In this document: piece after piece, positions 368 through 62,845 of the stretch
Numbering within the stretch: position 1 is the stretch's first letter
Layout: each line of letters opens with the position of its first letter
Source: a virus
Length of the DNA: 64,000 nucleotides
Virus record (IMG/VR): IMGVR_UViG_3300030398_000007
Direction: 5' to 3' (one strand)
The notes under the pieces: model-generated
What the model was told of the DNA's origin: nothing
The model's database searches: none
Seen by the model: only the letters and a program-made list of their open reading frames with translations
Made by a program: the position numbers and the translations under genes

Positions 368-787
368 CTCATGTTCAAAAAAAATCAGTTGAAAGATAAA
401 GAATGTATAATAATCAAGAAGAATATTCATAGGATAAAACTTGTCCAGCGGAGATATAAGGCGTGTTTTGTGTTATACTAAAAGTACTCCAGAAGTGGAA
501 GAGACTCAGGAGCGTACCAACTCATTGACAACTGACGATATCGGTCGACGACAAGAGGCGTCGTCTCAGGACGCGCCTCGCAGTCGAGACCATAAGACGG
601 GTCTCTCTTGCTCGTCGATCGGTTGCCGAAACCTTAAAATCATTTTTCACGACCATTTTTGGAGAACGGCCATGACGGACACCAAGACGCAACGACAGAT
701 AAAAAGAACCACACGCCAAATTGGCGTATGGACCGCTGCGTCTGACGGCGACGATCCGCTCATTTGATTTTTCTCTTTGAGTGATTG

Positions 788-4329: not shown

Positions 4330-4467
4330 ATATACTCTTTAACAGAATGGCGCCGTAATTCTCCGCCATTTATGGAGGGGATATAAGGCGTGTTATCAAA
4401 AGACTCGGGCTGGAGTCTTTGGCGCGTAGCGCCTAGAAGCCCCTTCCTGAAGGAAGGGGAGCAGTCA
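4330..4467 (+). mobile_element. Miniature IS605-family derivative (LE+RE only, MITE/PATE-like) related to the tnpB element at 45190-46455
   Basis: acagaatggcgccgtaattctccgccat... (LE) joined to aaagactcgggctggagtctttggcgcgtagcgcctagaagc...ggggagcagtcac (RE). The same ends flank tnpB at 45238-46389. Confidence 0.75.
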
Positions 4468-4612
4468 CAGTGATTGGTCCTTGTCATGAGAGAAGATATT
4501 GGCCTTCAGAACTGCCAGTTAAAACATTTGAATCCATTTTATTAACCTGTGGAGATCTTCCGAGAACAATAGAAAAATCCATTGAACTGCGCAATAAAAA
4601 TCTGGAAATGCC

Positions 4613-7740: not shown

Positions 7741-10700
7741 ATGCAAAAGAAATTCTACGAAAAAACGAATTTAATGACGAAATTTTTATTGTATCTTTTG
7801 TCTTTTCAGTTAATCTTTTTTCCGCTTGAAGCCGAAGCTTTTCCTCACAGTGGAAAAATCGTCAATGGAGCAGGACAAATTAGCGTCAATAAAAACGCTA
7901 TGACGGTCATTCAAAAAACTGCTTCATTGTCAATTAATTGGTCCAGTTTCAATTTGGCAGCCAATCAGATATTAAAATTCATTCAGCCAAATACAAATTC
8001 TGTTGTTTTTAATAATATTTATGGAAATTCGGCTTCAACGATTTTAGGTATTTTGCAGGCGAACGGCCATGTTTGGCTTATGAACCCGTACGGAATTATT
8101 TTTGGCAGAAACGCTCAAATCAATGTCGGTGGGATTGTTGCTGGTGGGCTCGCGTTAGAAAACGGCACCCTGTATGGAAATGGCAGTGTCGTCAATAATG
8201 GAAACATTACGGTAGGAAAAAATGGCGAACTGGCGCTTCTTGGACGAACGGTCTCCAATGCGGGATCTCTCTATTCTGTAGACGGAACCATTCTGTTGGA
8301 GGGAGGCTCCTCTTTTTCAAAAAACGGAAACACATTTCTTATTCAAAATAACGCCTCCGGAAACAGTGTCACAAATTCCGGCAATATTACGAACAATTCT
8401 GGAACGATATTACTAAAGGCCGGAACAAAAGATTCTTTGTTCGCTTCTTCTGTCAATACAACTGGAACAATTATAGACCATTCTGTCGGTTCCGATATCG
8501 GGAACGTTACACTTATTTCGGGTTTGTCTGCCGGAACAACAACTGTCGGAGGAACAATTGATCTGACGCCGGCCGGAACGGGGAATGGTGGTATGCTCGA
8601 CACCTCCGGGAATCGTGTCAACGTTCTGACCGGAACACGTATTTTGACAGACGGAATGAATGGAACAAACGGTATGTGGATAATGGATCCAGCCAGCTTT
8701 TACATTGGTAAAAATACCGGGTCTCCTAATTCAACAGACGGCAACAAAACTGGATATGAGGATATTTCTGGTTCTCAATTAAGTGCTGATTTGTCCACTT
8801 CTTCCATAACGATCGACAGCACGAATGGATCGGGCGGCACTCTAGGGAATGTTTACGTCAACGCACCAATTTCCTGGTCGTCTGGAAACACATTGACGTT
8901 AAACGCTGTCAACAATATCGAGATCAATGCCCCAATCACCAATACGTCAGCATATTCTCCGACAAAAACATTGACCACAGGCGTAACGATTCCAAATACC
9001 CCATTGTTGACACTCAGGTCTGACGACATGTCTCTCGGAGGAACAGAAAATGCCGGCACGGCATGGAACGGGACGTCGCTGACAGGCGTTCCTTCCGGCG
9101 TTGGAACGGTGGCCTTCAATTCCGGAGGCTCGCTCGATATCAACGGCCCGGTCAGTATTTATTACAACCCGACGAACTACATGACGCCCACGACATTTTC
9201 GAATTCCGGCACCGGAACCGTCACAAGTTACATGCTCGTTTCGTCTCCGGAAGATTTCTATTACCTGGATCAGAATCAGAATGCGACGATTCTTGCCAAT
9301 AGCTACGCCATGAATACCAATATTCAATTGCCTTCACCGACGTCGTCTTCCCTGACTGGTGCAGATTTGGCACAGGTTGAATGGGCAACGGCACAAAATG
9401 GATACACCTATTCGGCCGGTTCCTCTACAAACTCCAACTGGACACGGTTTGGAAGTTCTTCAGCGCAATTCTCGGGCAATTTTGACGGATTGGACAACAC
9501 ATTGTCCGGGCTGAACATGACCGACAATGTTCATACAACAATGGGCTTTTTGGGTGGCGCTTCTGGCTTTATTGAAAATACGATAATTGACGCTCCGGTT
9601 ATCAACATGGATTACAATACGACCAGCAGTAATTTTCTTGTTTATGACGGAATCGTTGGTTTTGGAAACGAACTGTATGGAATAAATGTCAAAAATTTGT
9701 CCATGAACCTTATAGAAAATGACACTGGGTACCTTTCTTATTTTACTTCTTTTACCGGAGGAATTGCTGGTAGCGCTGGGCTGATTGCCAACAGCAAATC
9801 GTCAGGGAACATTAATTCTACAATGACCGGAAACCAGTTAAATTATACACAGGCTGGCATTTATCTTGGTGGGCTTGTTGGATACGGAAAAAACATTATT
9901 TCCAGTTCTTCCAGTCTTTCTATGTCAAATGACGCTCCAAGTACATACGTGAACAATAATTATTTTGGTGGCTTGGGGGGTTATTTATACGGTGGGAACA
10001 TACTGGATTCTTACAGCTCTGGAAGCCTGACACTTGCAACTCCATTGTCGTTTGAAAGCAATATTGGCGGGTTGGCAGGTGGTACTGATAACACCACTGT
10101 CAACAATAGCTACAGCACGTCCGTTTTGGATATGACTCAGACTCAACAAGCTTCCACTTATTTCGGAGGACTTTTAGGGGATATATATGGTTCAACCACT
10201 ATAAATAATAGTTATTACAATGGTCTAATAGAAAACCAAACGAGTCATTCTTCTAGTGGATCCATTTCTAGAATTGGTGGAATAATCGGCTTTTCTTATG
10301 TCGCTCCAGCCAAAATCTCCAACGACTATGCCGTCGCTGTTGTATCTGGATTTAGTGGTACGCCGACAATTGGGGGAATTTTTGGAGAAACGGGTTCTGG
10401 ACAAGTCGATTTTTCGCATTCAACCTTCGATAGTTCTACGTCTGGAACAACAGCTGCCATTGGTTTAAACACAGGGGCAACAATAACCGGAACAATATCG
10501 TCGTTTACAACAACCCAATTGCCTTCCGGATTCGTTTTTCCATTTTCTCTTAACACTTGGCAAAATGGTCAATATCAATCGAATGTTTCGACAAATCCAT
10601 GGGTGGAAGGACAGATTTCCGTTCAGGGTGTAAATTACAATGCGCCCATATTGATTCCTGACACGGCAACGGACACCGTTACATTAAAGAACTCGACATA

Positions 10701-21790: not shown

Positions 21791-21889
21791 TTTTAGTTTT
21801 GAGATCACAAATTGTGATTTCAAGTTTTTGCCACTAGAATGAAAACAATGAAATTTTGTCAAGACAAACTCTTTTGCAGAGGATTCGAT

Positions 21890-29879: not shown

Positions 29880-30031
29880 GAACGTCCTTGATTTTTGTCT
29901 TGAATGTCAATGCGAGATCAATTTGCTCTGCTGAAATGCTAGAGCACAATAATAATCTTTCTATGACAGACTCCTTGTCCATAAGGACAGGCTGTTTCGA
30001 TTTGCGAAAATTTAAATTTTCAACGTTCATG
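29869..30031 (-). CDS. Small ORF (53 aa) overlapping the NTase start by 11 nt; putative partner/antitoxin
   Basis: GGAG RBS, translationally coupled overlap ATGAAAGAACGTGA. Confidence 0.3.
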
Positions 30032-30573
30032 AATTTCTCCAAAAATAAGCTACAGCGGGTAGCGAATTTTATTCTCCTGTTGTTTCAATATGGTAATGTA
30101 CAAGACAACTTTAACACAAACTACAAAATTGTAGAACTTGTCCGAAACGGTTTGTGTTGAGAAATGATATTATGATTTAAAATGGAAATTGTTCCATTTT
30201 TACATTTCCTTTTAACAAGGAGGTCTTTATACCCAAAAAAATTTTTCAGGCGGCCATGATTGGTATTATGGCTATTGGATTGTCTTCTTGTAGCACCGAT
30301 TTCCATTATGCTTCTTTATCAGGCAGCTTTTGATTACGAAGCTCAAGAGAAAATTGCAAAATTGCACCTCATTTCCGTAGAAGCCGTAAATGAATTCCTT
30401 GAGCAAATCAATTCAAGAGGAGGCTTGCCGGTTGAATCTACAATTGAAGCGATAAAGTCCATTTGGAGAGATTCAAAAACTCCATGGTCGGTTTTTTATG
30501 TTGAGGGAGAAGCAGATCAAAAACTATCTGTAGAGAGACTTCTTTTCGCAATAAGAAATATATAAACATTCGT

Positions 30574-37285: not shown

Positions 37286-38404
37286 TTATCTGACCAAATC
37301 AATCTCCCCTTCCAAAACCCTCTCCACCAGCGTCGTGCTTTTTCCACTTCGATAATCCTTCACTAAAGCCGCCGGCGCAAAAACATACGACCGGACCCTA
37401 TGACCAAAGTCTGCTGGACCACCAGCCCGGAGATTGGCCTCCTTTTCTTTTCGCCTGGCAGCTCGTTCTTTCTCCGACAAAAGAGATTTCAGCTTTTCTA
37501 TGGCAATGGCCCTGTTCCGTTCCTGTGTTCGTTCCTCCTGGCAGGTTACGACAATTCCGGTCGGTTTGTGTGTTAGTCGAACGGCCGTTTCGACCTTGTT
37601 GACGTTTTGTCCGCCCTTTCCGGAAGACCGAAAGAATCCGATCTCGATATCCTCCTGCAAGATTTCTGTCCGGCTTTCTTCCAGCGGTTCTGTCCATACG
37701 GAGACTCCGGCAAAGGAGGTTTGCCGCCTCCCTCCCCTGCCGTATGGAGAAAATCGGGACAATCGGTGGGAGATCCGGTTTCAGAAGTAAGATCCGACAA
37801 GAGAATGGTCTCTGATTTCAACAGAACGCGCCTGAATCCTGTCTCCGTTTCTTCTGCGTCAATGATTTGCAGGTCGCGTCTTTTTAACAGAATGGCGCCT
37901 TGTATCTCCGCCATAAATGGCGGAGATACAAGGCGTGTTTCACTATTTTTATTGTAACGCACAACATGATATAATGCTTATCATGAAGAATAAAAAGACT
38001 CGGGCTGGAGTCTTTGGCGCGTAGCGCCTAGAAGCTCCTTCCTTTCAGGGAGGGGAGCAGTCACCCTGGCATAACCAAGATACATGGCGGCCAGCATTTG
38101 CTTCAATCCCTCCCGTTCCGGCCAGAATGGACATAAAGAGATTCTCTTCCTGGAGGGATTGTTTGGCGAAACAAGAATCGAGACTGTTTGATTTCTGATA
38201 TTGGATTAACAGAGGAATTGTTTCGGCAAGAATATTTATGGCCTGGTTCGATTCTCTTTCAAAAAAAAGAATGTTGTCAGAATCCAGATACTGGCATTGA
38301 AGAGCTTCTTTTGCCGTTTCCAGGTCGTCAATTGCGGACGACATACGTTTATGTGCCGAAAGCATAATCGAGGCCTGACGAAGCGTTTTGAGCGGTCTGG
38401 ACAA
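37286..38404 (-). pseudogene. Class I peptide chain release factor gene interrupted by the MITE at 37889-38066 and carrying a frameshift at a T-tract near 37775
   Basis: N-part (38404-38070) contains ILAGTGGIEA (RF2 AGSGGTEA). After the MITE: AEETETGFRRVLL (RF ETGVHRLVRKSPFDS), then in the -1 frame [13 protein letters not shown]...[21 protein letters not shown] (GGQ domain). The first ~20 codons of the 37962 ORF are encoded by the MITE inverted repeat. Confidence 0.65.
37889..38066 (+). mobile_element. Miniature IS605-family derivative (LE+RE), second copy, inserted in the release-factor gene
   Basis: acagaatggcgccttgtatctccgccat... (LE) to ...ggaggggagcagtcac (RE); ~90% identical to 4330-4467. 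Confidence 0.75.
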
Positions 38405-38626
38405 TAGCGGTGTGTTAAATGAGACTGACTTCTTAAGACAAGAGCCTCTAGCTGGGAAAGGTCAAAGACTCCTCCGGAGTTCTCCTCCGAGGGCTAAGAG
38501 TTGAGCGCCTGAAAAATTATTGAGCACTGGTTTCTTGATAGACATGTTCGTACTCCTTTTGATCTTTGAAATGTTGTTCGTAAAAGAAACGACTTTTGTA
38601 TTGTATTCCATTCTAGGCTTTAATGT

Positions 38627-41272: not shown

Positions 41273-41314
41273 ACTTGACTTCCTCCCCTCCCTGAATGGA
41301 GAGGATTCCTGGTT

Positions 41315-42523
41315 TTAAGCAAATACCAGGTCGGTTCCTGCCAATGCGTAAGACTCTACGTTTGATCCCATGCTTTGGGACTCTCCTTCTGACGAAGGAG
41401 AACAGGCTAACTGGGCGTGTCCCGCCCTTACGGCATTCAATGCGCCGACATAGTCGGCGTTCGCGGTAAAACCGCATTTGACACAGGCAAAGGTCTCTTG
41501 AGTCTTCCGATTGTCCGGAGAGACGTATCTACACGTCTCGACCGGACAGGTCTGACTTGTATACGCCGGAGGAACTCGCAAGAGCTGTCCGCCGTTCCAT
41601 GACAGCTTGTACTCGAGTTGTCTCCGGAACTCTCCCCACCCAAGAGAAAGAATCGCTTTGTTCAGTCCCTTCTTGCCCTTCCCTGATTTCGTCATTTTCT
41701 GAACCTTCAGATCCTCGACGACCACCACCGCGTGGTTTTTGCTGATCGCGGTCGTCGCTTTATGCAGAAAGTCCTTTCTGACGTTTGTAATCTTTTCATA
41801 GAGACGACCAAGCTTTAGCCTGGCTTTTGATCGGTTCTTCGAACCTTTCTTTTTTCTTGAAAGGCTTTGGTGCAGTTGCGTCAGTCGTTTCTCAAACCGC
41901 TCCACGAGGTTAGGGGCGGTGATTCCTTCGTTCTCTCCGGTGGAGAACGCCGCGAAGCGAGCGACGCCGAGATCAATTCCGAGAACTTCGCCTTTTGGAG
42001 TGACAGGATCGATCTCTTGTGCTGTGAGAATGGAAACGTACCACTTCCCGCAGGAGTATCGTATCGTGGCCTGGCGGACGGTGCCTTTCAGGGCACGACT
42101 CTTCCGGTACCGGATCTCACCGAGTTTGGGGAGCGCGATCCGGGAACGCTCTTCGTCGACACGGACGGTTTTCTTGTCCGGAAAGGTAATCGTATCGTTT
42201 TTTCCCTTTTTGTGGAAAACTGGGTGGTCCGCTTCTTTTTTGAAGAAGCGGATATAAGCCGTGGTTAGGTTCTCCACAGCGCATTGCAGGCCCTGAGACT
42301 GGGTTTTTCTGAGCCATTCCGTTTCTGGATCCTTTTTCCAGGAGGTGAGTGTTTTTGCCAAGTAAACATACCCTGGAAAGGGTTTGTTATCCTTGTGAAG
42401 ATCTTCGACCAAACTCAAGGCTTTATTGTAGACAAACCGACAGGAACCGGCATACTGCCGGAGAAGCAAGTCCTGTTGTTTTGTCGGTTCCAGTCTAAAG
42501 GAATAGGCTTTTAATATTTTCAT
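41315..42523 (-). CDS. tnpB: TnpB (IS605 OrfB-family RNA-guided nuclease)
   Basis: 402 aa; N-terminal KILKAYSFRLEPTKQQ, RuvC-like core, C-terminal Zn-finger CPVETCRYVSPDNRKTQETFACVKCGF and RuvC-III NADYVGALN. Confidence 0.85.
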   Translation of the reverse strand: MKILKAYSFRLEPTKQQDLLLRQYAGSCRFVYNKALSLVEDLHKDNKPFPGYVYLAKTLTSWKKDPETEWLRKTQSQGLQCAVENLTTAYIRFFKKEADHPVFHKKGKNDTITFPDKKTVRVDEERSRIALPKLGEIRYRKSRALKGTVRQATIRYSCGKWYVSILTAQEIDPVTPKGEVLGIDLGVARFAAFSTGENEGITAPNLVERFEKRLTQLHQSLSRKKKGSKNRSKARLKLGRLYEKITNVRKDFLHKATTAISKNHAVVVVEDLKVQKMTKSGKGKKGLNKAILSLGWGEFRRQLEYKLSWNGGQLLRVPPAYTSQTCPVETCRYVSPDNRKTQETFACVKCGFTANADYVGALNAVRAGHAQLACSPSSEGESQSMGSNVESYALAGTDLVFA

Positions 42524-42711
42524 ACAAATATTATACTAGAAATTGAGACTTATATCTCCGAGCTGAAGCCAGAAGTTTTTTCGTCTCAGAACGATAAATG
42601 ATCTGTCAATACAGAAAAAGCGATCGCCGATTTCAAGTGCGTTTGGATCCAGTTCAAAACGATTGGGCAATTCTTTCAGCATAGGAGTTCTCCAAAACTT
42701 TAAATGAAAAA

Positions 42712-43053
42712 TTATCTCTCAATGACACTTTCCGGAAACACATTGTCTTTTCGTGTTTGAGTGTTGTCCATAACGGTTGTCAACTCAAATTTTGTTTTTG
42801 CGTGACGTGCGCCAAATGATCGGATTGTGTCGATCGTGGCAGCCAAGTCCATACCCGTGCATTCTCCGGAAATGTCAATAACAAAACTTTCGGCAAAATC
42901 CCAAACTTCGGCCGCAGAAATATTCATTTCGGCAATTGAATTTGTCAATTTTGGCAGAACAGTTTTTGCCCAATCTTCTGCCATAACGTCAATGGCCTTG
43001 TCATTAATAGCAACTGGAATTTCAGCTGTCATGTGAATGTGTTTGCGAATCAT
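42712..43053 (-). CDS. Hypothetical protein (its 5' end is duplicated at 2376-2417)
   Basis: ORF with GGAGG RBS; lies directly downstream of the minus-strand tRNA pair. Confidence 0.4.
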   Translation of the reverse strand: MIRKHIHMTAEIPVAINDKAIDVMAEDWAKTVLPKLTNSIAEMNISAAEVWDFAESFVIDISGECTGMDLAATIDTIRSFGARHAKTKFELTTVMDNTQTRKDNVFPESVIER

Positions 43054-43128: not shown

Positions 43129-43205
43129 TGGCGCCCCTGGCAGGATTTGAACCCGCGACCCTCTCGTTCGTAGCGAGACGCTCTTATCCTCTGAGCTACA
43201 GGGGC
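43129..43205 (-). tRNA. tRNA-Arg (anticodon ACG)
   Basis: Reverse complement gives acceptor gcccctg/caggggc-g-CCA, anticodon stem tctcg/cgaga with loop ctACGaa, T-stem gcggg/cctgc. Confidence 0.8.
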
Positions 43206-43244
43206 ATTAAAGTTTGGATCGTCCTTCGGACTCCAGAATCTTAT

Positions 43245-43320
43245 TGGTGGGTTGCCTCGGAGTCGAACCGAGAGTCTCGCAGCTTAAAAGGCCGGGGTTT
43301 TGCCATTAAACTAGCAACCC
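43245..43320 (-). tRNA. tRNA-Lys (anticodon TTT)
   Basis: Reverse complement gives acceptor gggttgc/gcaaccc-a-CCA, anticodon loop ctTTTaa, T-stem ctcgg/ccgag with loop TTCGACT. Confidence 0.7.
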
Positions 43321-44712: not shown

Positions 44713-45224
44713 TCGACAAAGAAATGGCCAAAAAGCTTATGCTGAATGTTGTTAAACAATACAACTCGGCAACAGGAAAAATTCCGCAAGTTTTGTTTGT
44801 TGTCGGCGGAACCGCTATGGCCTTTCATAACATGCGAGAACAGTCTGAAGACGTTGATCTGTTTTTTAAAGATCTGGATTTTGAATATGCTGTAAAACAG
44901 GTAGAGAAAGAAACAGGATATCGTATTGACGTAACTTCAGAAAAGAACTTATGGGGGGATCTCGTTATTCCGGATATCGAAAAAGACGCAAAAGTGACAG
45001 ATTTTTTTGTTTTTGAAGGACACGACGTCCAGATTGCGGCTATTAGTCCAGAAACGCTTGCTGTGATAAAGGCCTCGTCAATGAGAGAAAAAGATCGTCT
45101 CGACATTCCTCTAATTCTCAAAAAAACAACACCGGAAGAAATACTGGCCAGATTTGCTTGTTTGTGGACCAGTCAGAGACCAAGTGTCGCCAAAGAAGCC
45201 CTCAGTGACTGCTCCCCTCCCTGA
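44697..45224 (+). CDS. AbiEii-like nucleotidyltransferase; 3' end fused to the IS right end
   Basis: VLFVVGGTAMAFHNMREQSEDVDLFF (GGTA...R.S.DVDL). The last ~13 codons (SVAKEALSDCSPP) are encoded by the IS RE sequence. Confidence 0.5.
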   Translation: MSDEMIDKEMAKKLMLNVVKQYNSATGKIPQVLFVVGGTAMAFHNMREQSEDVDLFFKDLDFEYAVKQVEKETGYRIDVTSEKNLWGDLVIPDIEKDAKVTDFFVFEGHDVQIAAISPETLAVIKASSMREKDRLDIPLILKKTTPEEILARFACLWTSQRPSVAKEALSDCSPP

Positions 45225-46455
45225 AAGGAAGGAGCTTCTAGGCGCTACGCGCCAAAGACTCCAGCCCGAGTCTTTTTATATTTGTAGCGGCATTTCTGTT
45301 TCTGTCCTGTTTCTTGCCGCATTTTGGACACTTATACACACGGACATTCAAAGGCATTTTCTGCCTATGTCCACAACCAGGTGTAGAACAGTCCTGAGAC
45401 GTGTACGCAGGATCGACTTTCACAAACTCTCGACCAGCTTCTGCCGCTTTGTTCGAGAGTATGGAGAGAAAGGTTCCCCACGCAGTGTCGTATTGCGCAT
45501 TGTTGATCGAAGCATATTCCGAAACCATTTCTGAAGGGGTCAGATCTTCGACCACGATAATTCCGTACTTGCCGACAAGAGATTTTGCTGTTTTATGGAA
45601 AAAATCCTGTCTTTGGTTAAAAACTTTCTCGTGAATCTTTGCAACAATTTTTTTCTTCTTCTCTTTATCTTTGCCGGGATTATTTTTTTGCAGGTCTAGC
45701 CTTCGTTGTTCCTGAGCCAAACGCTTGGCACTTTTTTTGAGAAATTTCGGATTCTGGACGATCGGATCCTCGTCTTCGGAAGTGGTCAGAAATTCTTTGA
45801 TTCCCATGTCGATCCCGACCGATAGAGGACTATTTGACAGACGTTTAGGCTCTACGTTGTCACAAGAAAAACAAACGAACCATTTGCCAGTACTTGTTCT
45901 TTTAATCGTGCAGGTTTTTATTTTTCCTTCAAGACTTCTGTGTGTGAGAACTGAAACCTTCCCAACACCAAAAAGTTTCAAAACATTTCCTTGCAATGAA
46001 AATCCCACGTTGTTTTGTGGGAACGTTAAGGAATCGTACCGGTCTTTACCTTTGAATCTTGGATACCCAGGGTCTTTGGCTCCTTCTTTAAGTCTTCTGA
46101 AAAAAGACTGAAAGGCCAGATCGACTCTTTTGACAACGTCTTGAAGAACCTGTGAATGAACGAACCTCAGAGAAGGTCGAATCTTTTTTAGACAAGGAAG
46201 CATGTTCTGCTGTTCGTGATAAAATAACGAAACGCCATACCATTTCCATGCGTTTTTTCGGTGTTCTAGCATGTAGTTGTAGAGCCACCGGCACTCTTCA
46301 AGCCGCTGAGAGAGAAGTGTCTTTTGATTTTTTGTCGGATACAGCCGATATTTGAAAGTTTTTTTCATAATGAGTATTATATCATACATACACTACAAAT
46401 AGAAGGGGTCGCCTTATATCCCCGCTATGAATGGCGGAGAATTACGGCGCCATTC
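45190..46455 (-). mobile_element. IS605-family (IS1341-like, tnpB-only) element with defined LE (46390-46455) and RE/omega-RNA scaffold (45190-45240)
   Basis: LE gcattttaacagaatggcgccgtaattctccgccat (rc) and RE ...aaagactcgggctggagtctttggcgcgtagcgcctagaagctccttcc...ggggagcagtcac; the same ends form the miniature copies at 4330 and 37889. Confidence 0.8.
45238..46389 (-). CDS. tnpB: TnpB (IS605 OrfB-family RNA-guided nuclease)
   Basis: 383 aa; FKYRLYPTKNQ N-terminus, C-terminal Zn-finger CSTPGCGHRQKMPLNVRVYKCPKCGKKQDRNRNAATNI. Confidence 0.85.
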   Translation of the reverse strand: MYDIILIMKKTFKYRLYPTKNQKTLLSQRLEECRWLYNYMLEHRKNAWKWYGVSLFYHEQQNMLPCLKKIRPSLRFVHSQVLQDVVKRVDLAFQSFFRRLKEGAKDPGYPRFKGKDRYDSLTFPQNNVGFSLQGNVLKLFGVGKVSVLTHRSLEGKIKTCTIKRTSTGKWFVCFSCDNVEPKRLSNSPLSVGIDMGIKEFLTTSEDEDPIVQNPKFLKKSAKRLAQEQRRLDLQKNNPGKDKEKKKKIVAKIHEKVFNQRQDFFHKTAKSLVGKYGIIVVEDLTPSEMVSEYASINNAQYDTAWGTFLSILSNKAAEAGREFVKVDPAYTSQDCSTPGCGHRQKMPLNVRVYKCPKCGKKQDRNRNAATNIKRLGLESLARSA

Positions 46456-46530
46456 TGTTAAAATGCTGTTGAATTTTGTCCATATCTCCTTTTGCTGCAT
46501 AAAGTTCTTCCGAAACGCATTTCTTTTTTC

Positions 46531-47803: not shown

Positions 47804-48013
47804 CCTCATTTTTCTATTCGACGAATATTGTTGGGTTGTCTTTTGGGGTTTCTCCAAAAGGTCCTGTAGAATATATTCAAGCTTTTCTATTTACTCTCTT
47901 AATCTTTGGATTCATGACTTTTGCAATATGTTTGATAAGTGAAAAAACGGAATGAAATAAAGTCTTCATAAAATGGCAACGTTTAAAAAACACTCTTGAA
48001 AGGAGAAACAATC

Positions 48014-48334
48014 ATGAACAGTTGCATGGAAAAAAGTATCGAACAAATTCGTGAAACAAATTTCAGAAACGAAAAAAGAAGAAAGGAGCGTTTGGATTTT
48101 GTACGAAACATTCTCAAGAAAAATGACTGGGCTATTTCTGAACTTGAAAGAGAGGGGGTGGACATGTCCGAAATTGTCAGAATCATAAACAGGTGTGAAG
48201 GTTCTGACATTACGGTTCATGAGGTTGAATGTGTCAAAGACGAACGAGACAGGCTTTGCGAACAAGTATTTCTATTTGTTGTAATTATAGTTTATGGGGG
48301 GGTTGTTGTGTGGTTATACTCAAAATTAATATAA
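48014..48334 (+). CDS. Hypothetical protein with C-terminal TM
   Basis: RBS AAAGGAGAAACAATC preceding ATG at 48014; preceded by the duplicated 80-bp leader. Confidence 0.4.
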   Translation: MNSCMEKSIEQIRETNFRNEKRRKERLDFVRNILKKNDWAISELEREGVDMSEIVRIINRCEGSDITVHEVECVKDERDRLCEQVFLFVVIIVYGGVVVWLYSKLI

Positions 48335-48468
48335 GTGAAAAAACGGAATGAAATAAAGTCTTCATAAAATGGCAACGTTAAAAAAACACTCTTGAAAGGA
48401 GGAACAATCATGAACGGTTGCGCAGTTTTCGTAGTTCTTTTATTTGTGTTTACTGTAGTTTTTGAGGT

Positions 48469-49440: not shown

Positions 49441-51291
49441 TTATTCGTTGTTCCGATCCTTTATAAACCCAAACGCCATTTTTTCCGCACTTGGAAGTGT
49501 CGAGTCAACACCTGTCAATTCCTTCAAATAAAACGCCTTTACGTCGACCCAGACACTCCTCAAATCCTTTTTCGCCCGCAGCCCTTTCTCGACTGTCTCC
49601 AGCCCGGCATTTAAAAAGGGGACTTTGTCTGGCGTTGTTCCCATTTCTTTGGCAAAACGCTTGTGCATTCTGGCAAAGATCGGATTGGCATGTTCCGGTT
49701 TCGGTCTTGGCGTTTCGATCACTTCAAAACGCGACTGCAATGGTTCGTCTATTTTCAGAATGTTATTGGCCGTCGCAATCAGGTTCAAGCTTGTCACGTC
49801 AATATGCCCTTCAAGAAAGTCGTCGTACAGGTTGCTTGCATTTCGGTCGAGATACGCAAGAAGTGCCTGTTGTGCCGTTCCGTATCTTTCTTCCGTGTTC
49901 TGTTTGTCGATTTCGTCCAGGAGAAACAACGGATTGGCCACGCCGCATGAGGCCACAAAAGACAGTATCCGGCTTGGTTTCGGCTTCTTCCACCACCGGC
50001 TCAATGAGCTGATATATTCGACTGAAGAAGACGCTCCGGCAAAACTAAAGGTATCAAACGGCAGTCCGATAAGCCCCGCAAAGTCGGCCGCCCATTCTGT
50101 CTTCCCAATACCTGGAGGTCCGACCAGCAAAATCGGAGGAATGGTGATAACGGCTTGAGTTTTTGACTGTTCGGCAAAATAGATCCGGCCACGAAGACAC
50201 TGCAGCACCCATGCCGTGATTTTGGACAGCCATGGAAATTCGGTGTCCATGGCTTTTTGAATGTCGGCCAGTTTCTCCGTTCCTCCGGAAAAGGTGGCCA
50301 GTGGAATCCCCTTGCCTAACGGCAAGCTTTCCAGAATCCTGTCGAATTCTCCCTTGCCTGATTCTCCCTCATAAGCGTTTGCGTGTCTGATAAAAATATG
50401 TGTTGATTCAGGCAATGTTTTATTCACGCTTGAGCTTGTTGAGGCTATTTCTGGAGAACTTGACATTGTCATTTTTCCAGAGCTTTTTTGTGTATTATTG
50501 GTTTCCAAAGTGTTGTCGTCTAGAATTTCTTCTAGCCATAGATCATTGTCAGAGCCAGAGCATGGGAATTTGTCTTCCACATATTCTTCTGCCAACCACA
50601 TATTTCCATTTTCTATGACGATTTCTTTTGTTTGTTTCTTGTTGTCAGTATAGGTCGAAAATGAGAACTGATTTTCACTTGCGTTTTGGTTTTTCGTTTT
50701 ATCAATACTGGAGCGCCAGGAAACGGTCTTTTTCGTCAATAGGTTTTTTTCTGTATGCTCCTTTAAGACAAGAACGGCCGCCTTTGTATCATAACCCAAA
50801 GCCAATAAGGCCGTCGTAAACGGTACTGGAAACTCGTAAAGCTCAATACGGCTGTTTATGTAAGTTGCCGCGTTCATGACAATGAGCTTGGGACGGAATT
50901 CGTTGCTCAATGAATCCTGTATTTGTTGTTTAAGTTCTTGTGGAGACAATCCCGGAGATAAGATTTGCACACGAAGATTCTTGCTCGCCAATTTCTTTTC
51001 TTTGACTGAAGCATTCTCTAGAAGGGACTGAAGCGCCTTCGAAATAATCGCTTCTGTTGCTCCGATAGAGATATAAAGGACTTGTGCCGGAGGCTTCTCT
51101 TCCGAATCAAAAATTTCATACAATTGGTTGTTCGCGCCGGCAACGCATGTGGCAATAGCCAGACCGACCAGATTGTTGTCCGAATCGTCCGGAAGAAGAA
51201 CAGTACCAAGAGTTCCCTTTTGGAAACCTGAAAAAATTTCGTCGTCAACATTAGACGAATTGTCGAGGAGTTCTTTAACGTCAATGTTCAT
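49441..51291 (-). CDS. Lon-like AAA+ ATPase without protease domain, N-terminal RecA/KaiC-like degenerate domain (paralog 1)
   Basis: ILLVGPPGIGKTE Walker A, NPLFLLDEIDK Walker B identical to Lon, LIATANN sensor-1, LQSRFEVIETPRP arginine-finger/sensor-2 region; ends ~80 aa after the AAA+ module with no S16 protease domain. Confidence 0.7.
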   Translation of the reverse strand: MNIDVKELLDNSSNVDDEIFSGFQKGTLGTVLLPDDSDNNLVGLAIATCVAGANNQLYEIFDSEEKPPAQVLYISIGATEAIISKALQSLLENASVKEKKLASKNLRVQILSPGLSPQELKQQIQDSLSNEFRPKLIVMNAATYINSRIELYEFPVPFTTALLALGYDTKAAVLVLKEHTEKNLLTKKTVSWRSSIDKTKNQNASENQFSFSTYTDNKKQTKEIVIENGNMWLAEEYVEDKFPCSGSDNDLWLEEILDDNTLETNNTQKSSGKMTMSSSPEIASTSSSVNKTLPESTHIFIRHANAYEGESGKGEFDRILESLPLGKGIPLATFSGGTEKLADIQKAMDTEFPWLSKITAWVLQCLRGRIYFAEQSKTQAVITIPPILLVGPPGIGKTEWAADFAGLIGLPFDTFSFAGASSSVEYISSLSRWWKKPKPSRILSFVASCGVANPLFLLDEIDKQNTEERYGTAQQALLAYLDRNASNLYDDFLEGHIDVTSLNLIATANNILKIDEPLQSRFEVIETPRPKPEHANPIFARMHKRFAKEMGTTPDKVPFLNAGLETVEKGLRAKKDLRSVWVDVKAFYLKELTGVDSTLPSAEKMAFGFIKDRNNE

Positions 51292-51494
51292 GTGGCGCCT
51301 CCAAAATATTACCATAGTAGTTGTTATACGATATAATGATCGTACCACAAACTATTCTGGTTGAATCAAAAAGTGGAGACGTTACAGACTGTTTTAAAAT
51401 AGCGAGCGAATGGAATTTTGAGACAACACCATTGGGGCGGCAAAAAACAAAAGACACTTTCGCCGCCACATGGATTTAACCGGCATGGAGAAGA

Positions 51495-53396
51495 CTAAAA
51501 ACCGATCGTCTTTTTTGTTCCATTTGGCATACGGACACTCGTTCCGGTAATTTCTTCAAGAAACGCGGCTCTCATGTTTTGCCAGATTTTTCGTAGGTCC
51601 TCTTCTTTTGTCAAACCTTGTTCGATTGTTTTGACAACCTTATCTGAAATGTGAATATCTTCTGTATCGACGTTCATTTCTTTAGCCAAACGTTTACGCA
51701 TGTTTTTTAGTATTGGTGGAACATGCTCCGGTCGAGGTCTTGGTGTTTCAATGATCTCAAGTCTGGACAACAATGGTTCGTCAATCTTTGACATGTCGTT
51801 GGCTGTCATAATCATATTCAATTTAGACACGTCGATATAACCTTCCAGAAAATCGTCAAATAAATGAGTGGCGTTTCTGTCGAAATAGGCCAAAAGGGCT
51901 TGTTGTGCCGTACCGGCATATCTGTTTTGGCTTTGTTTGTCGATTTCGTCCAATAAAAGTAAGGGATTGGCGACCTTGCAATCTGCAACAAATGACAAAA
52001 TCCGGCTTGGTGTTGGCGTTTCCCACCACCTGCCAAAAGAAGAAACGTTTGCATATCCAATTGACGTACCGGCAAATCCGAACGTGTCAAAAGGAACATT
52101 CAAATATTTTGCAAATGTTGCGGCCCATTCTGTTTTTCCAATTCCTGGAGGTCCAACCAGCAAAATGGGAGGAACTGAAATAACAACTGGTCGATTGGAT
52201 TTTTCGGCAAAATAAAGTTTCCCCTGCAATGATTGAACAATCCACGTTGTTATTTTTTCAAACCATGGAAATTTTGTGTCCAGTTTGTTTCTTATTTCCT
52301 GGAGCTTTTTTTGACCTCCTGAAAATGTAATAAGAGGAAGTTTTTTTCCGGCAGGAAGATTCATTGTGATTCTTTTAAAATCATGAAATCCATTTCTGCC
52401 AGATTCATACGGTTTAAAGCTTTTGACAAAAATATGTGTCGGCATAGATTGTTCGACTTCTTGCATAGTTGTAGAATCTACATAGACAATCTTGTTTGTT
52501 TGTTCCTCTTCTTTTCTCTCTTCGTTTTTCTTTCCCGATCCTCCTTCGTCGGCACTTCTCTTTGCGGACAATTGGTCTTTCAACTTTTCCATTAAATCAA
52601 GTTTTTGCTTCAATAAGTCGATTTGTTCTTTTGAATAATTTTCTTTCTTGATTGATCTATTAAATTGTTTTGTAACGCGTTTAATCTTTTCATTTTCAAA
52701 CACAAAACTCTCTTCATATTTTTTGTCTCCCTCCCAAAAAAAACATGTGTATTTCATTGGGCTTGCCAGAGCCATGGTGTTGTCCACATACAGTCTCCAC
52801 TCGAATGGAGGCTTGACGGGTCCGGTTTTTTCATTCAACTCCCTCAAAAGAAGAATGGAAGAACCGGTTCTTATCGAAAAAGACAAGAGACCATTAGCCA
52901 ATTTGTTATTGAACCCTTCTTTTTCGACATTGATATTTATATAATCGCTGGCGTTTATGACGACAAGATCGGGAGTGCCTCTTTCTTCGCTTATTGAAAA
53001 AAGTGTTTTGGTTATCTCTTCAGTCGAAATGGTCGGAGACATTGTTTCAACGAAAAACAATTCTTGCAGAATCTCTTTTTGAGATTCCGTAAGGTCATTT
53101 AAAAATCGACGCGTTGCGCTTTTAACTGTGGTTTCTCTGTCTCCAATCGAAATATAAAAAACCTTTCTGGTTCTTGGAGCACTTTTATGTAATGAAAAAG
53201 GTTTTTTGGACGAAAGCATTCCGGCCAATTCCGGGTGGCCTCCCGACGCAGTCAGAGCAATCGCTAATCCAATCATATTTTTGTCCGGACTGTCCCCGTG
53301 GAGAATAACTCCAAGCTCCCCTTTGTAAAACCCAAGAAAAATCTCGTCTTTGACGGGATCCGGTATTTGCAGCAATTTATTGATATCCAGGCTCAT
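51495..53396 (-). CDS. Lon-like AAA+ ATPase without protease domain (paralog 2)
   Basis: ILLVGPPGIGKTE, NPLLLLDEIDK, IMTANDMSKIDEPLLSRLEIIETPRP; same architecture as paralog 1. Confidence 0.7.
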   Translation of the reverse strand: MSLDINKLLQIPDPVKDEIFLGFYKGELGVILHGDSPDKNMIGLAIALTASGGHPELAGMLSSKKPFSLHKSAPRTRKVFYISIGDRETTVKSATRRFLNDLTESQKEILQELFFVETMSPTISTEEITKTLFSISEERGTPDLVVINASDYININVEKEGFNNKLANGLLSFSIRTGSSILLLRELNEKTGPVKPPFEWRLYVDNTMALASPMKYTCFFWEGDKKYEESFVFENEKIKRVTKQFNRSIKKENYSKEQIDLLKQKLDLMEKLKDQLSAKRSADEGGSGKKNEERKEEEQTNKIVYVDSTTMQEVEQSMPTHIFVKSFKPYESGRNGFHDFKRITMNLPAGKKLPLITFSGGQKKLQEIRNKLDTKFPWFEKITTWIVQSLQGKLYFAEKSNRPVVISVPPILLVGPPGIGKTEWAATFAKYLNVPFDTFGFAGTSIGYANVSSFGRWWETPTPSRILSFVADCKVANPLLLLDEIDKQSQNRYAGTAQQALLAYFDRNATHLFDDFLEGYIDVSKLNMIMTANDMSKIDEPLLSRLEIIETPRPRPEHVPPILKNMRKRLAKEMNVDTEDIHISDKVVKTIEQGLTKEEDLRKIWQNMRAAFLEEITGTSVRMPNGTKKTIGF

Positions 53397-54812: not shown

Positions 54813-55946
54813 ATGGCAAAACCAAAAAATTTTAAAAAATTTGTCGCAAGCAAAGAAGATTGTTTTTCCGTATACAACGCTTCGTTTCACCTTTCCGGAA
54901 GGCTAAATCATTCGGAATCTTCTATTGGTATTCGCTACGGTAAAAACGAGGGAATCCTTTTGCCGTATGTTTGTGCTAGAACAATAATTGGGTCTGGTGA
55001 ACTTGTTCCAACGGATTATTTAAACGGTGTGCACGGAGAATCTTTTGGGCAAAAGGTTAGAGATACATTGCATGTTAGAAATCTTCTACTCGATCCCAAA
55101 CTATCGGACGAGCAAAAGAAGCTCCTTCCAACAGAAGAAACCCAACGGACAATACGTGACGCATGGCTTTCCTGGAACCCAAGCCATAAATCCAATGACA
55201 TAGACCTGTTTGATCCAAATTGTAAACAAATTCTTTTACCAGAGAAACTTTCTGACTTTACGAATTACAAGTCTTACACCCCACTTCCTGCTCCAGGCAT
55301 TTCAAAAATGCTACACATAAAATGCAACGATTTTTCAAATACATTAACAGAGTCTAAGGAAGAGAACAAAGAATCTACAACGAATTGCTTCAAATTCTGT
55401 TCAATAGCTTATGGTGGGACTAAACCGCAAAATGTTACGACAATGAGTATAGTCAGAAGCGCGATTGTTGGATTAGCTCCAAAACATAACAAGACTTATG
55501 CAAAATTGTTACGAGCTTTGTATTCTAAAGAAGTTTTTTCGTTATATAACTTCAAAGAAGTTATGGAATCATATTATTCGTGGTTTTTATCAAGAAATAA
55601 CAAGAACAAACATATTGAAAAAATAGAAAATGTTTTGATTGAAAAAATAGTTAAATCAGTAAGTGAACAAATCGAAACTTTTTATAACTCACTATCACAA
55701 AATTTTGATACAGAAGAGATCAAATATGTCACAAATAAAATAAATGACAGATTGCTGTCTGGGATTTGTGATCCTGCTTCCAGAGATTTTGAATGGTTCA
55801 ATATATTATCTTCTGCAATAGTAGAAGAAATGGCTTCTTTCAAATTCGGAAAAAACGGAGAGACAATCTCGTATTCTATTGTTGATAGGAATCGGGTAAG
55901 AACAATCGTTTATAAAACAATTTTAAAACAATATAGAGAAGAATAA
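54813..55946 (+). CDS. cas8f: Cas8f/Csy1-like large subunit (short, 377 aa)
   Basis: First gene of the operon, 1-nt overlap with cas5f. Assignment rests on synteny with csy2-csy3-cas6f; no strong motif recognised. Confidence 0.5.
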   Translation: MAKPKNFKKFVASKEDCFSVYNASFHLSGRLNHSESSIGIRYGKNEGILLPYVCARTIIGSGELVPTDYLNGVHGESFGQKVRDTLHVRNLLLDPKLSDEQKKLLPTEETQRTIRDAWLSWNPSHKSNDIDLFDPNCKQILLPEKLSDFTNYKSYTPLPAPGISKMLHIKCNDFSNTLTESKEENKESTTNCFKFCSIAYGGTKPQNVTTMSIVRSAIVGLAPKHNKTYAKLLRALYSKEVFSLYNFKEVMESYYSWFLSRNNKNKHIEKIENVLIEKIVKSVSEQIETFYNSLSQNFDTEEIKYVTNKINDRLLSGICDPASRDFEWFNILSSAIVEEMASFKFGKNGETISYSIVDRNRVRTIVYKTILKQYREE

Positions 55947-56815
55947 TGACACAATTTTTGCATGTTTCTCACCTTAAAGTAACAGGAGCAAATGTTTTGT
56001 CTGCCTCCTGGCTTGTAAGTCCAGCGCAGGTAATTCCGGCGCTTATGTTTTCCCACAATATGGGACGCAGAACTGGATTCTCACCAACAGGAGTGGCAAT
56101 TGTTCACCATGACTATAATCTGGTAGGCGAATGGTTTTGTGGTGGATTTGGAGCTTATCAACGAACAGAAATTGGGGCTGGCGTTTCTGGAAACAAGGTT
56201 CGTGGACCAAGCCAACCAACGATACTAGCAGACATGGAGTTGTCTCTTTACATAGAATTTGAAGGGGATCCCCCTTCAGAATCGGCACTAAAAAAATTTT
56301 TCGAAGGTGGCATAAGGTTTTCTGGCGGTACTGCACAGATCAGAAAACCAAATTCTGGATATCGCCAAATTGTTGAGGGGGTTAAAAAAGAGTCTGGATT
56401 TTGGATTGTTGACAGAACGGATCTAGTCGACCCCAAACAACCATTAAATTCTATTGTAAACAATATTGGGTTCAAAAACTTCAATAAAGGAAAAGATTCT
56501 TGGCTGTGTCCAGCAGTTTTGGCGCATGTAATGGCTGAAGGCCCTATTGGTACTGGAAGAGAAGATTATCCGCAATATTACGGAGAACCTTGTGTTGGTC
56601 TTGTCCAATATATTTCCGTACACGAGTATAAGGATTTTTGTTCGTCTCAAACAGAACTGTCAAACAGAACAACGCCAATTTTATGGTGGGGAACAATTCC
56701 TGTTTGGAGAATGAACTGGAATGAAGTTCCGGATCTTGACGAGAATCCAGTCAAGATTTTTTTTGTAACACAATCTTTAACACCCATTAAACGAAATGGA
56801 GATCTAAATGTCTAA
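55946..56815 (+). CDS. cas5f: Cas5f/Csy2-like
   Basis: Position between cas8f and cas7f with overlapping stops/starts; length ~289 aa. Confidence 0.5.
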   Translation: MTQFLHVSHLKVTGANVLSASWLVSPAQVIPALMFSHNMGRRTGFSPTGVAIVHHDYNLVGEWFCGGFGAYQRTEIGAGVSGNKVRGPSQPTILADMELSLYIEFEGDPPSESALKKFFEGGIRFSGGTAQIRKPNSGYRQIVEGVKKESGFWIVDRTDLVDPKQPLNSIVNNIGFKNFNKGKDSWLCPAVLAHVMAEGPIGTGREDYPQYYGEPCVGLVQYISVHEYKDFCSSQTELSNRTTPILWWGTIPVWRMNWNEVPDLDENPVKIFFVTQSLTPIKRNGDLNV

Positions 56816-57953
56816 AAAAATCAAAGATTTGCCAGGGGTTTTTGCTCTCACAAAAAGACTTGTTGTAAGCGACGGCGTTTTCACGGCAACAACAGATAAC
56901 GGTTCAAGACAGCCCGTATTCGTTTTTAAAACAGGGCTTCGGGGAACACAGAATCTAAATCCAATGGCTTCAGACAAGGACGAAGTTGGAAATGTGCAGG
57001 AAACACATGTCGCAAAGCTTCCAAATGATACCAAAAACTATACTGTCACATTTTCATTGGGAGCACTCCCGTTGACAGACGTAATTTCGGCATGCGCACA
57101 AAAGCCTGACGAAAAACATATCGACGGAAACGATATGAGACATGCTATTAATACATTTATGACAAGTAATGATTTCGAGCAACTTGTGCTTGAGATTGGT
57201 TGTCGTTTCGCAAGAAATATAGCAAATGGTAGGTGGCTTTGGAGAAATCGGGCAGAAGCCAACTCTGTTAAAATTTCAGTTGCGGTTTTTGGAAGCGGTC
57301 AATCAAAAGGATCCGAAAACTCAATTGAGGTTGAGTTCTATGCACTGTCTATGCCTTTTTCTGATTTCGAAAATTACTCAGAAGACGAAATAAAAATTGG
57401 AAAAGCTTTAGCCAATGGTTTTTTGGGCATTGAAAGGTTCAAGATACTAGTTTCTGCGACTATTGTTCCGTCTGTCAATGGTCGTATTGGAGTATATCCG
57501 TCCGAGAACTATCTCGCCCACAAACCAAAGGGATTTGCCAGATCTCTATATTATATTCCAGGCATAATTCCGGAAGGAGCTGGTTCCGAGATTTGTCTTG
57601 GACAGGCCGCTCTCAGATCTGAAAAAATAGCAAATGCGCTCAGAACATTTGACACTTGGTATCCTGAGTTTTCAAGTATTGGAAAACCACTGGCTATTGA
57701 AGCGAATGGTGCAAGCCTCGATCACGACAGATTCTTTAGAAAAACCTCTGGTAAAAACAAAGATCTTAGCAATAGCAAAGCTTCGGCCTTTACTCTTTTT
57801 TCTCGTTTGGTTTCCGAACCAGAAACATTGACAAAAGAAGAAAAGCTTTTTCTTGTCAGTATCCTTATTCGTGGGGGAGTCTTTCCTGGTGTAAAAAAAG
57901 AAAAGAGAAATAAAAAAACTGAGGAAGACGAAGAAAATGAATCTTCCACCTAA
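56808..57953 (+). CDS. cas7f: Cas7f/Csy3 backbone subunit
   Basis: ANGRWLWRNR motif characteristic of Csy3; 381 aa. Confidence 0.75.
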   Translation: MSKKIKDLPGVFALTKRLVVSDGVFTATTDNGSRQPVFVFKTGLRGTQNLNPMASDKDEVGNVQETHVAKLPNDTKNYTVTFSLGALPLTDVISACAQKPDEKHIDGNDMRHAINTFMTSNDFEQLVLEIGCRFARNIANGRWLWRNRAEANSVKISVAVFGSGQSKGSENSIEVEFYALSMPFSDFENYSEDEIKIGKALANGFLGIERFKILVSATIVPSVNGRIGVYPSENYLAHKPKGFARSLYYIPGIIPEGAGSEICLGQAALRSEKIANALRTFDTWYPEFSSIGKPLAIEANGASLDHDRFFRKTSGKNKDLSNSKASAFTLFSRLVSEPETLTKEEKLFLVSILIRGGVFPGVKKEKRNKKTEEDEENESST

Positions 57954-57983
57954 AATAAACCGTCTAAGAAAAAGGAGGAGACA

Positions 57984-58541
57984 GTGAAGCCTTTAGCCTA
58001 CGTTGATTTTATTTTATCGGAAGCTGGAGACATGGCGATCCCTGTCCTTGCAGGGAAAGTTCTTGGAATATTTCACAGGGTGTGTTCTTTAGGTCATATA
58101 ACTTATGCAATGTCCTTTCCTCGCATGCTAAAGACGGACGATCCTGCGGAAATATTTGGCACGTTTAGGTTTTTTGGCGAGACCAAAGAGGACTTGGCAG
58201 ATCTTGTTAAAAAAATGAAAAATGATTTTTTGATTAGAGATTATACAATTGTTGGGCGGCCAAGAAGCGCACCTGAAAGTTCAGATACATGGGTTAGCTT
58301 TACTCGTTTTCGTATACCAAAAGAAATTAGATCTGGACGATTAAACAATAGATCTCGTGAATACAGATACAATTTGGCGGCAAGTATGCCGTTTATTCCT
58401 TGTTTTAGTTCGTCCACTCAACAAAATTTCAGGATCTATATCGAGACGTTAACCGAAAAAGACCCAAAAAAAGGTGGCGGCACTTTAGACACCTATGGTT
58501 TGTCACACAAAAGAGATCCAATTTTTTTGCCATTGTTTTAA
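57984..58541 (+). CDS. cas6f: Cas6f/Csy4 crRNA endoribonuclease
   Basis: 185 aa; C-terminus GGGTLDTYGLSHKRDPIFLPLF matches Csy4 ...GGFTCYGLSKGGFVPWF; GTG start with AAAGGAGG RBS. Confidence 0.8.
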   Translation: MKPLAYVDFILSEAGDMAIPVLAGKVLGIFHRVCSLGHITYAMSFPRMLKTDDPAEIFGTFRFFGETKEDLADLVKKMKNDFLIRDYTIVGRPRSAPESSDTWVSFTRFRIPKEIRSGRLNNRSREYRYNLAASMPFIPCFSSSTQQNFRIYIETLTEKDPKKGGGTLDTYGLSHKRDPIFLPLF

Positions 58542-58565
58542 CAAGCATACAAAGGACTTAAATGT

Positions 58566-59585
58566 ATGGGAGACACAAAAACAACAAAGAGAGCCGTACT
58601 CTTATCAAAACGTGCCAATATTTTTCTCCTGGAACGAGTAAAAGTTCAGGTCAACGACAATCGCGTTGTGTATCTGACGGATACAATGGAACCAATCGAA
58701 AAACTTTTTAACATTCCGGAAAAGAACACGATTGTCGTTTTACTTGGGCAAGGAACGTCTATTACGTCAAGAGCTGCCAGAATGCTTGCAGAATCTGGTG
58801 TGCTTGTCGGCTTCTGTGGAACGGGCGGATCTCCATTTCTTTCGGAAGAAGATATGACATTTCTTCCTTACTTCAGCGAATACCGTCCTGTTGAATATAT
58901 GCAGCAGTGGGCAAGTCTTTGGTTCGACGAAACAAGAAGGTTGTCTGCCGCCAAAAAACTTCTTAGTTTGAGATTGGAGTATGCCGAAAACATATGGGCC
59001 AAACTTGGGATCTCTGGAATTGTAGTCCCAGGATCATTATTGGATAAAGTGGAATCAGGTATCGCTGCAGCAAAAACAACAACAGAGCTTTTGTCCATAG
59101 AAGGCAATTACATAAAACAGTTGTATCAATATTTGGCAGAAAAATTTGGCGCCAAAGATTTTGCCCGTGTCCATACACGTACTACTGACAGAGACAAAAT
59201 GCTTGCCTCAATGCCTGTATCTTCACAAAAGGTCAATAAATTGTTAACGATTGGCAATTACTTTGCATATGGAGCCGCCGGGTCTGTATTAACGGCTATG
59301 GGAATCAGTTATGCGTTCCCGTTGTTACACGGAAAAACCAGAAGAGGTGGACTAGTATTTGATTTGGCCGATCCAATAAAAGACGCATTTGTACTACCAC
59401 TTGCGTTTTTCATGCAAAAACAATCTCCTAAAGAGTTCAGAGACGAATTGTCGAGCCGATTTGTGGATCACTTGGTTATGGACGACATGTTTGACTTTAT
59501 TGAAAAGATTTTGGCCAATGACAAAAATAAGAGGGGTTGCGAAACGTTAGTTTCTGGTTTAACCGAAAAAGAAGCGCACACATGA
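58566..59585 (+). CDS. cas1: Cas1 integrase (I-F type)
   Basis: SKRANIFLL...NIPEKNTIVVLLGQGTSITSRAARMLAESGV closely parallels I-F Cas1 SKRANLYYL...NIP.ANTTSLLLGTGTSIT. Confidence 0.85.
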   Translation: MGDTKTTKRAVLLSKRANIFLLERVKVQVNDNRVVYLTDTMEPIEKLFNIPEKNTIVVLLGQGTSITSRAARMLAESGVLVGFCGTGGSPFLSEEDMTFLPYFSEYRPVEYMQQWASLWFDETRRLSAAKKLLSLRLEYAENIWAKLGISGIVVPGSLLDKVESGIAAAKTTTELLSIEGNYIKQLYQYLAEKFGAKDFARVHTRTTDRDKMLASMPVSSQKVNKLLTIGNYFAYGAAGSVLTAMGISYAFPLLHGKTRRGGLVFDLADPIKDAFVLPLAFFMQKQSPKEFRDELSSRFVDHLVMDDMFDFIEKILANDKNKRGCETLVSGLTEKEAHT

Positions 59586-62788: not shown

Positions 62789-62845
62789 AATGGGTAACTC
62801 TTAAAAAAGTGGCTTTTTCTCATGCCAGTATTGAAACATTCTCCT

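Follow-up and report, generated by a model that had tools for sequence, protein, structure and literature searches.

Short protein-less derivatives of a tnpB-only IS200/IS605 element, probable PATEs, retain a right-end module that covaries across a TnpB clade

PATEs are established elements (PMC3119063), and they often encode omega-RNAs that need TnpB supplied in trans, from other elements (Meers et al., 2023; PMC10055086). [quoted passage not shown] In the ISDra2 system, the omega-RNA has a core of 116 nt, which trimming reduces to about 98 nt; the loop of its stem 1 (−106 to −102) pairs with positions −6 to −2 to form a pseudoknot, stems 2 and 3 are also present, and the loop of stem 4 lies at −20 to −17 (PMC10097598). 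The pentamer TTTAA is the reported TAM of the TnpBs ISAam1 and SisTnpB7 (PMC13639567).

We describe here two short elements, mini A and mini B, from a window of DNA (the whole stretch that was analysed, 64,000 nt; IMG/VR record IMGVR_UViG_3300030398_000007). They share with the known PATEs the protein-less build, the size range, the LE-plus-RE composition and, presumably, the dependence on TnpA in trans. They differ in their host, an uncultured bacterium seen only in metagenomes, in their end sequences, and in belonging to a set of four deletion variants with a single RE-side limit, one of which keeps the tnpB promoter. The concept of a PATE-borne omega-RNA is already published and the present case adds little beyond it. 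The features of the window to which we refer are as follows.

4338–4342, plus strand: TTTAA target or TAM-like motif directly 5′ of mini A (the same pentamer stands at 8/8 copies)
4343–4468, plus strand: mini A, 126 nt, PATE-like (alignment, covariance-model match of 62 bits, fold)
4469–4484, plus strand: predicted 16-nt guide of mini A, AGTGATTGGTCCTTGT, provided that transcription of the RE yields an omega-RNA (analogy with ISDra2; PMC10097598)
37883–37887, plus strand: TTTAA motif 5′ of mini B
37888–38064, plus strand: mini B, 177 nt, inserted antisense in a prfB-like gene (covariance-model match of 67.5 bits)
38065–38080, plus strand: predicted guide segment of mini B, CCTGGCATAACCAAGA
450–470, plus strand: solo LE fragment, GGAGATATAAGGCGTGTT, comprising the 3′ arm of the LE hairpin only, with neither 5′ arm nor RE
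45205–46457, minus strand: parent, a full tnpB-only IS of 1253 nt (ends, ORF, domains, covariance-model match)
45205–45288, 45238–46389 and 46390–46457, minus strand: RE module, tnpB, and promoter region plus LE of the parent IS
46458–46462, minus strand: TTTAA motif 5′ of the full IS
45189–45204, minus strand: predicted guide segment of the full IS, TGAGGGCTTCTTTGGC (minus strand), placed from the RE boundary

The parent is an IS200/IS605-family element of the IS1341 (tnpB-only) type. Its ORF (45238–46389) encodes a TnpB of 383 aa with the Pfam HTH_OrfB, OrfB_IS605 and zinc-ribbon TNB domains and the catalytic triad D194/E281/D362 (D194 and E281 are invariant in alignments, which also show D362); its alignment with ISDra2 TnpB (8H1J; E 2e-56) covers the whole protein, and an exact-protein lookup returned no identical record. 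All close relatives (TnpB 68–94% identical) are likewise tnpB-only, with no tnpA beside them, and the parent shows no substantial difference from the IS1341 group. A repeat finder and alignment revealed that the parent LE and RE recur at 4338–4468 and 37883–38064, with 94% (LE) and 96% (RE) identity to the full element in mini A, and 83% (LE) and 100% over 75 nt (RE) in mini B. The LE 5′ end, TTTAACAGAATGGCGCC, occurs exactly three times (4338–4354 and 37883–37899, plus strand; 46446–46462, minus strand), and a search of the window allowing up to three mismatches, for which ~0.19 sites are expected by chance, found no further site. Three LE and three RE copies are far above chance, in agreement with the initial annotation, which had recognized tnpB-less LE-plus-RE derivatives of the tnpB IS and held that ends failing to align with the tnpB flank would argue against such a family: the LEs align at 83–94% and the REs at 96–100% identity. 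The elements lie where it had placed them but for offsets of 1–2 nt, the REs ending ...GCAGTCAC at 4468 rather than 4467 and at 38064 rather than 38066, with 3′ flanks that begin at 4469 (AGTGATTGG...) and 38065 (CCTGGCATAACC...). An LE fragment that it reported at ~440–470 is real (GGAGATATAAGGCG at 450–463) but holds just the 3′ arm of the LE hairpin.

Both minis lack coding capacity, with just the last 13 codons of tnpB left in the 126- and 177-nt elements. Folds and alignment show that neither LE nor RE is an inverted copy of the other; the elements have subterminal hairpins and no terminal inverted repeats. The LE hairpin starts 7 nt inside the element, and the RE block of ~75 nt consists of three hairpins (H1, H2 and H3) and the tail ...GAGCAGTCAC. 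Mini A comprises an LE with an imperfect hairpin (4343–4394) and the RE module (H1-H2-H3-GTCAC; ~4395–4468), and has a predicted fold of −54.5 kcal/mol (z −4.2). Mini B has a perfect 19-bp LE hairpin at 37895–37935 and its RE module at 37990–38064; it keeps a tnpB promoter remnant, the extended −10 TGATATAAT at 37967–37975, plus the ATG. This fusion of the promoter region and ATG to the last 75 nt marks mini B as an internal deletion of a full copy. Its LE is without the internal loop that relatives conserve, and with that loop lost the copy may no longer be excisable.

The boundaries could be set by comparison with sister strains. An exact RE 26-mer had three matches in metagenome contigs, all in one metagenome (record ACXJ01), and none in viral contigs, and an exact RE 33-mer had none in genome contigs. 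The contig ACXJ01012491.1 (L002) is syntenic with the window over 28.6–40.9 kb at 94–98% identity and carries, at 9245–9340, the empty site of mini B (...TTTCAA|CCTGGCATA) inside an intact prfB-like ORF. The site there reads ...GTCCTTTCAA|CCTGGCATAG..., scarless and in frame, and in the window ...GTCTTTTTAA (C AGAATGG...GCAGTCAC) CCTGGCATAA..., with the element in parentheses; the prfB-like gene of the window comes back into frame (YARLKRRDLQIID) only on removing exactly 177 nt. A Logan contig (L004; TnpB 94% identical) has a full IS at a position corresponding to an empty site near 21842 of the window, with the same boundary, one substitution and zero indels between the pair. A further contig (L001) has a full copy beside window position 30116, a site likewise empty in the window; in this pair the intergenic flank is variable, and an alternative boundary would fit by one indel. 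From the reading frame and the empty sites it follows that the element starts at the C before AGAATGG and inserts 3′ of TTTAA with no duplication. The base after GTCAC varies between copies (A, T, A, G, T, A, C), so the extra base belongs to the left end. The start at AGAATGG proposed initially, after TTTAAC or TTAAC, must accordingly be moved one base upstream, to C4343 and C37888, with TTTAA as the motif: removal of 176 nt leaves the prfB-like gene out of frame, and at the L004 site the AGAATGG start would need an additional indel.

TTTAA stands directly 5′ of 8/8 copies, counting the window and other contigs, including L005, a 79%-identical relative, and none has a target duplication. The initial annotation had seen in the LE copies an insertion 3′ of a target motif resembling that of IS200/IS605, and this stands, given the shared pentamer and the duplication-free empty sites; different bounding target sequences, which it had taken as a sign against an IS-derived mobile family, were not encountered at any of the eight. 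The pentamer is the same as that of ISAam1 and SisTnpB7, with its use as a TAM here read from insertion sites only. The search for further copies that the annotation had suggested yielded full or mini copies in the sister contigs L001, L002, L003 and L004: L002 also holds a third mini, of 126 nt, and L003 an RE with almost no LE. Mini and full copies have moved recently between strains. Taken as PATEs, that is, as mobile internal-deletion derivatives of the tnpB-only IS at 45205–46457, both short elements are in all likelihood correctly classified. The reading of the repeats as host REP/BIME-like intergenic repeats or terminators with a chance likeness to IS ends, for which one could cite the stable hairpins and, in mini B, a pair of terminator-like sites that were flagged on the minus strand, is refuted by the alignments and empty sites and retains next to no probability: the repeats match the tnpB element at both ends with 83–100% identity, mini B has the tnpB promoter and ATG, and the insertions are polymorphic between strains, with one copy inside a coding gene.

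Several observations concern these sites and their surroundings. In two empty alleles (L002 9245–9340 and window 21842–21880; n=2) the pentamer is altered, to TTCAA and TTTCA, where the filled alleles have TTTAA. A weak RE-like covariance-model match at 29963–30033 (minus strand; 11.5 bits, E ~0.9), perhaps a chance one, lies ~100 nt from where the sister strain has a full IS. The release-factor-2-like (prfB-like) gene (window 37286–38600, minus strand; L002 8700–9900) is disrupted in the window, by the 177-nt element together with two or more other frameshifts, and is ~85% identical to that of the sister strain, the adjoining regions being 94–98% identical; in ACXJ01012491.1 it is intact, with the usual programmed +1 frameshift and the tripeptide motif SPY, not SPF. 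Since TGA still ends 8/28 long ORFs of the window, another RF2 gene must exist elsewhere. The host CCA-adding enzyme has matches of 79–98% in metagenomes only, and ~55% identity to the enzymes of Gamma-/Betaproteobacteria.

Elsewhere in the window, a type I-F CRISPR-Cas locus occupies 54813–63233 (Csy3 56808–57953, Cas3f 59537–62788), with a CRISPR array from 62826 that has a 28-nt repeat (GTTATCCACGACATATGTGGCTTAGAAA), 32-nt spacers and at least seven repeats. A motif TTGTTTA...TTTTGTTTTACGAACAAA of ~28–45 nt, which could be an operator or promoter element, stands upstream of several genes (window 16809, 25346, 29215, 31915 and 44195; L001 2798–2829). A cluster of 14 tRNA genes lies at 930–1996 and a tRNA gene pair on the opposite strand at 43132–43320; a 39-nt inverted repeat (92%; 2375–2413 / 43015–43053) adjoins both tRNA sites and starts two homologous ORFs. 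Direct repeats of 91 nt (97% identical; 47935–48025 / 48331–48421), which end in a ribosome-binding site and ATG, are the duplicated leaders of two small ORFs, and 49441–53396 (minus strand) encodes two tandem paralogues of ~635 aa with a Lon-like AAA region and 72–77% DNA identity.

The ends of these elements resemble those of IS608 of Helicobacter pylori in their asymmetric subterminal hairpins, in insertion 3′ of a short motif without duplication, and in a scarless donor joint; they differ in the motif (TTTAA here as against TTAC), in the lack of a local tnpA, and in an LE hairpin with a conserved internal loop. On this likeness, the minis would move as single strands by Y1 TnpA peel-and-paste. 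Y1 probes detected no tnpA in the window, as had been noted at the outset, yet they were positive in four other loci (L012, L050, L080 and L082; 4/~85 loci), where a Y1 tnpA lies directly upstream of a related tnpB; with none in the window, the transposase would have to be encoded outside it. Mobilization by a serine-recombinase TnpA of the IS607 type instead of Y1 would fit a window without a Y1 gene, and tnpB genes do occur in IS607 elements too (PMC10055086). We nevertheless consider it highly improbable, given the asymmetric subterminal hairpins at the ends, the duplication-free insertion 3′ of a 5-nt motif, the scarless empty site, the Y1 tnpA genes next to related tnpBs in the four loci, and an RE that is not a RAGATH-18-type RNA and has no Rfam match.

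With a TnpB alignment as query, species-representative genomes yielded 80 loci at 44–57% identity, from Chloroflexota, Latescibacterota, Leptospirillum, methanogens and others. Nearly all of them have the same layout at the tnpB 3′ end, namely H1, H2, (T)AGAAGC, H3 and GAG-YW-GTCAC, after which the flanks are unrelated. We built a covariance model of the RE module from the relatives; it gave one match per locus at the tnpB 3′ end across 78 fetched loci, and exactly three strong matches in the window (E-values 1e-15 to 1e-18):

45205–45288, minus strand: RE module of the parent IS, 74 bits
37981–38064, plus strand: RE module of mini B, 67.5 bits
4386–4468, plus strand: RE module of mini A, 62 bits

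Among 39 diverse RE sequences, 91.6% of cells were paired versus 36–53% with partners slid, cells changed on both sides numbered 161 versus 54 in shuffles, and compensatory change was present in 16/18 pairs. RNAalifold, run on 200 nt from 41 loci, predicted no conserved structure upstream of H1. The RE had been named as the place where an omega-RNA scaffold is to be expected, and the conserved, covarying module at the tnpB 3′ end of this TnpB clade fits that expectation; the alignment of REs proposed for locating the scaffold end puts it at GTCAC. The proposed covariance search had a divided outcome: Rfam offered no family (the whole window at gathering thresholds, and the IS at permissive ones, gave only tRNAs and noise), while the model from relatives found the three window copies. 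The lack of an Rfam match means only that, to our knowledge, no curated model covers the RE module.

Comparison with ISDra2 (PDB 8H1J, 8EXA) suggests how the module may be organized. The two systems share TnpBs that are homologous over their full length, an RNA module at the 3′ end of tnpB/RE, a last hairpin that resembles stem 4 in having its loop near −20 to −17 (H3 of the window element spans −30 to −10 and its loop lies around −22 to −18), a tail of the form G/U-U-C-A-N before the guide (here A-6 G-5 U-4 C-3 A-2 C-1), and a stem loop able to pair with −5 to −3, in which a G opposite A-2 matches the ISDra2 arrangement. They differ in the size of the module, ~75 nt here versus the 116-nt core, with no counterpart to the long stem 3 or to stem 2 as described for ISDra2, in the motif, TTTAA here (from insertion sites) versus the TAM TTGAT, and in a tail that here ends GTCAC, the ORF stopping just 33 nt short of the element's terminus. 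With its first bases G-G-R-Y, the H1 hexaloop can pair with C-3, U-4 and G-5; this loop–tail pairing is possible in 39/39 sequences, the variation being one-sided and wobble-compatible and the tail invariant. The Gly codon that forms the H1 loop is GGG or GGA in 71/71 non-redundant loci, the next base always being a pyrimidine, whereas elsewhere in these genes 64% of Gly codons have C or T in third position; this codon usage points to a nucleotide-level constraint on the H1 loop. By analogy with ISDra2, we infer that the RE block would form an omega-RNA core of compact build, H1 taking the place of stem 1 and H3 that of stem 4. The tail might instead pair with the GAC codon of D362 (−102 to −100), which is absent from the minis; a scan of the ORF for conserved complements of the tail and the AGAAG linker produced only GU-rich, unconvincing candidates.

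The four mini variants differ in their LE-side breakpoints (~7, 28, 52 and 100 nt of the left end kept), and 4/4 have a common RE-side limit at −73 to −77, just 5′ of H1. It is quite possible, though a little short of probable, that the minis are inert deletion relics, movable by TnpA, in which the RE is kept because TnpA needs it in cis and no functional guide RNA is made. They retain ~75 nt of RE as compared with the 98–116 nt needed for ISDra2, a promoter scan passed none, and the LE of mini B has changed to a perfect palindrome. The common RE-side breakpoint sits in the A-run ATATAAAAAG, and in mini B this A-run is microhomologous to the A-run after the tnpB ATG, so that deletion mechanics, not selection, could account for the RE-side breakpoint. 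The block that is kept nonetheless corresponds exactly to the one structured module that covaries in the clade, its loop nucleotides are constrained beyond coding needs, and a single RE-side limit is found despite the different LE-side breakpoints of the four variants. At IS608-type ends, TnpA needs only the last hairpin and the cleavage motif; if this applies here, H1 and H2 would not be required in cis.

That the minis give functional guide RNAs is likewise a tentative proposition, one we hold at slightly under an even chance. The RE block would be transcribed into the 3′ flank, giving an omega-RNA whose guide matches the copy's own insertion site, and, as in the pseudoknot of ISDra2, the GGRY of the H1 loop would pair with the tail at G-5 U-4 C-3. 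After excision, the cognate TnpB (45238–46389) would cut the TTTAA-flanked empty site, whereupon the element would be restored. For mini B, the TGATATAAT promoter left from tnpB could drive transcription: its extended −10 at 37967–37975, seen by eye, would place the start ~10 nt upstream of H1. A GNAT gene on the same strand ends 67 nt upstream of mini A, and read-through from it would be the only way for mini A to be transcribed. A strict sigma-70 scan found no promoter in or beside either mini.

The initial annotation had envisaged two TnpBs serving the minis in trans. Both ORFs are real, but only the cognate TnpB is a credible partner: the second (41315–42523, minus strand; 402 aa) is unlikely to use the mini RNAs because it is 30% identical to the cognate TnpB and its own RE scores 8.7 bits with the model. 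This second tnpB-only element (41275–42600, minus strand) has an LE containing ...GGAGATATAAGTCTC... and an RE ending ...GGAAGTCAA, a different end family.

A bolder form of the guide-RNA proposal, which we regard as unlikely, would make the ~75-nt RE block a complete, naturally minimal omega-RNA with an H1-hexaloop pseudoknot, the PATEs stand-alone guide-RNA genes (mini B having a promoter of its own) that borrow TnpB in trans for their retention, and the TAM-mutated empty alleles a trace of TnpB-driven selection. The minis are in any case clean natural protein-less derivatives of IS200/IS605, with base-precise ends, a defined motif and recent movement between strains, in which deletion leaves only a ~75-nt module, the one whose covariation extends across a very large TnpB clade. 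Should this module suffice for TnpB cleavage, it would be a natural scaffold shorter than the 116-nt ISDra2 core and, if true, relevant to compact genome editors.
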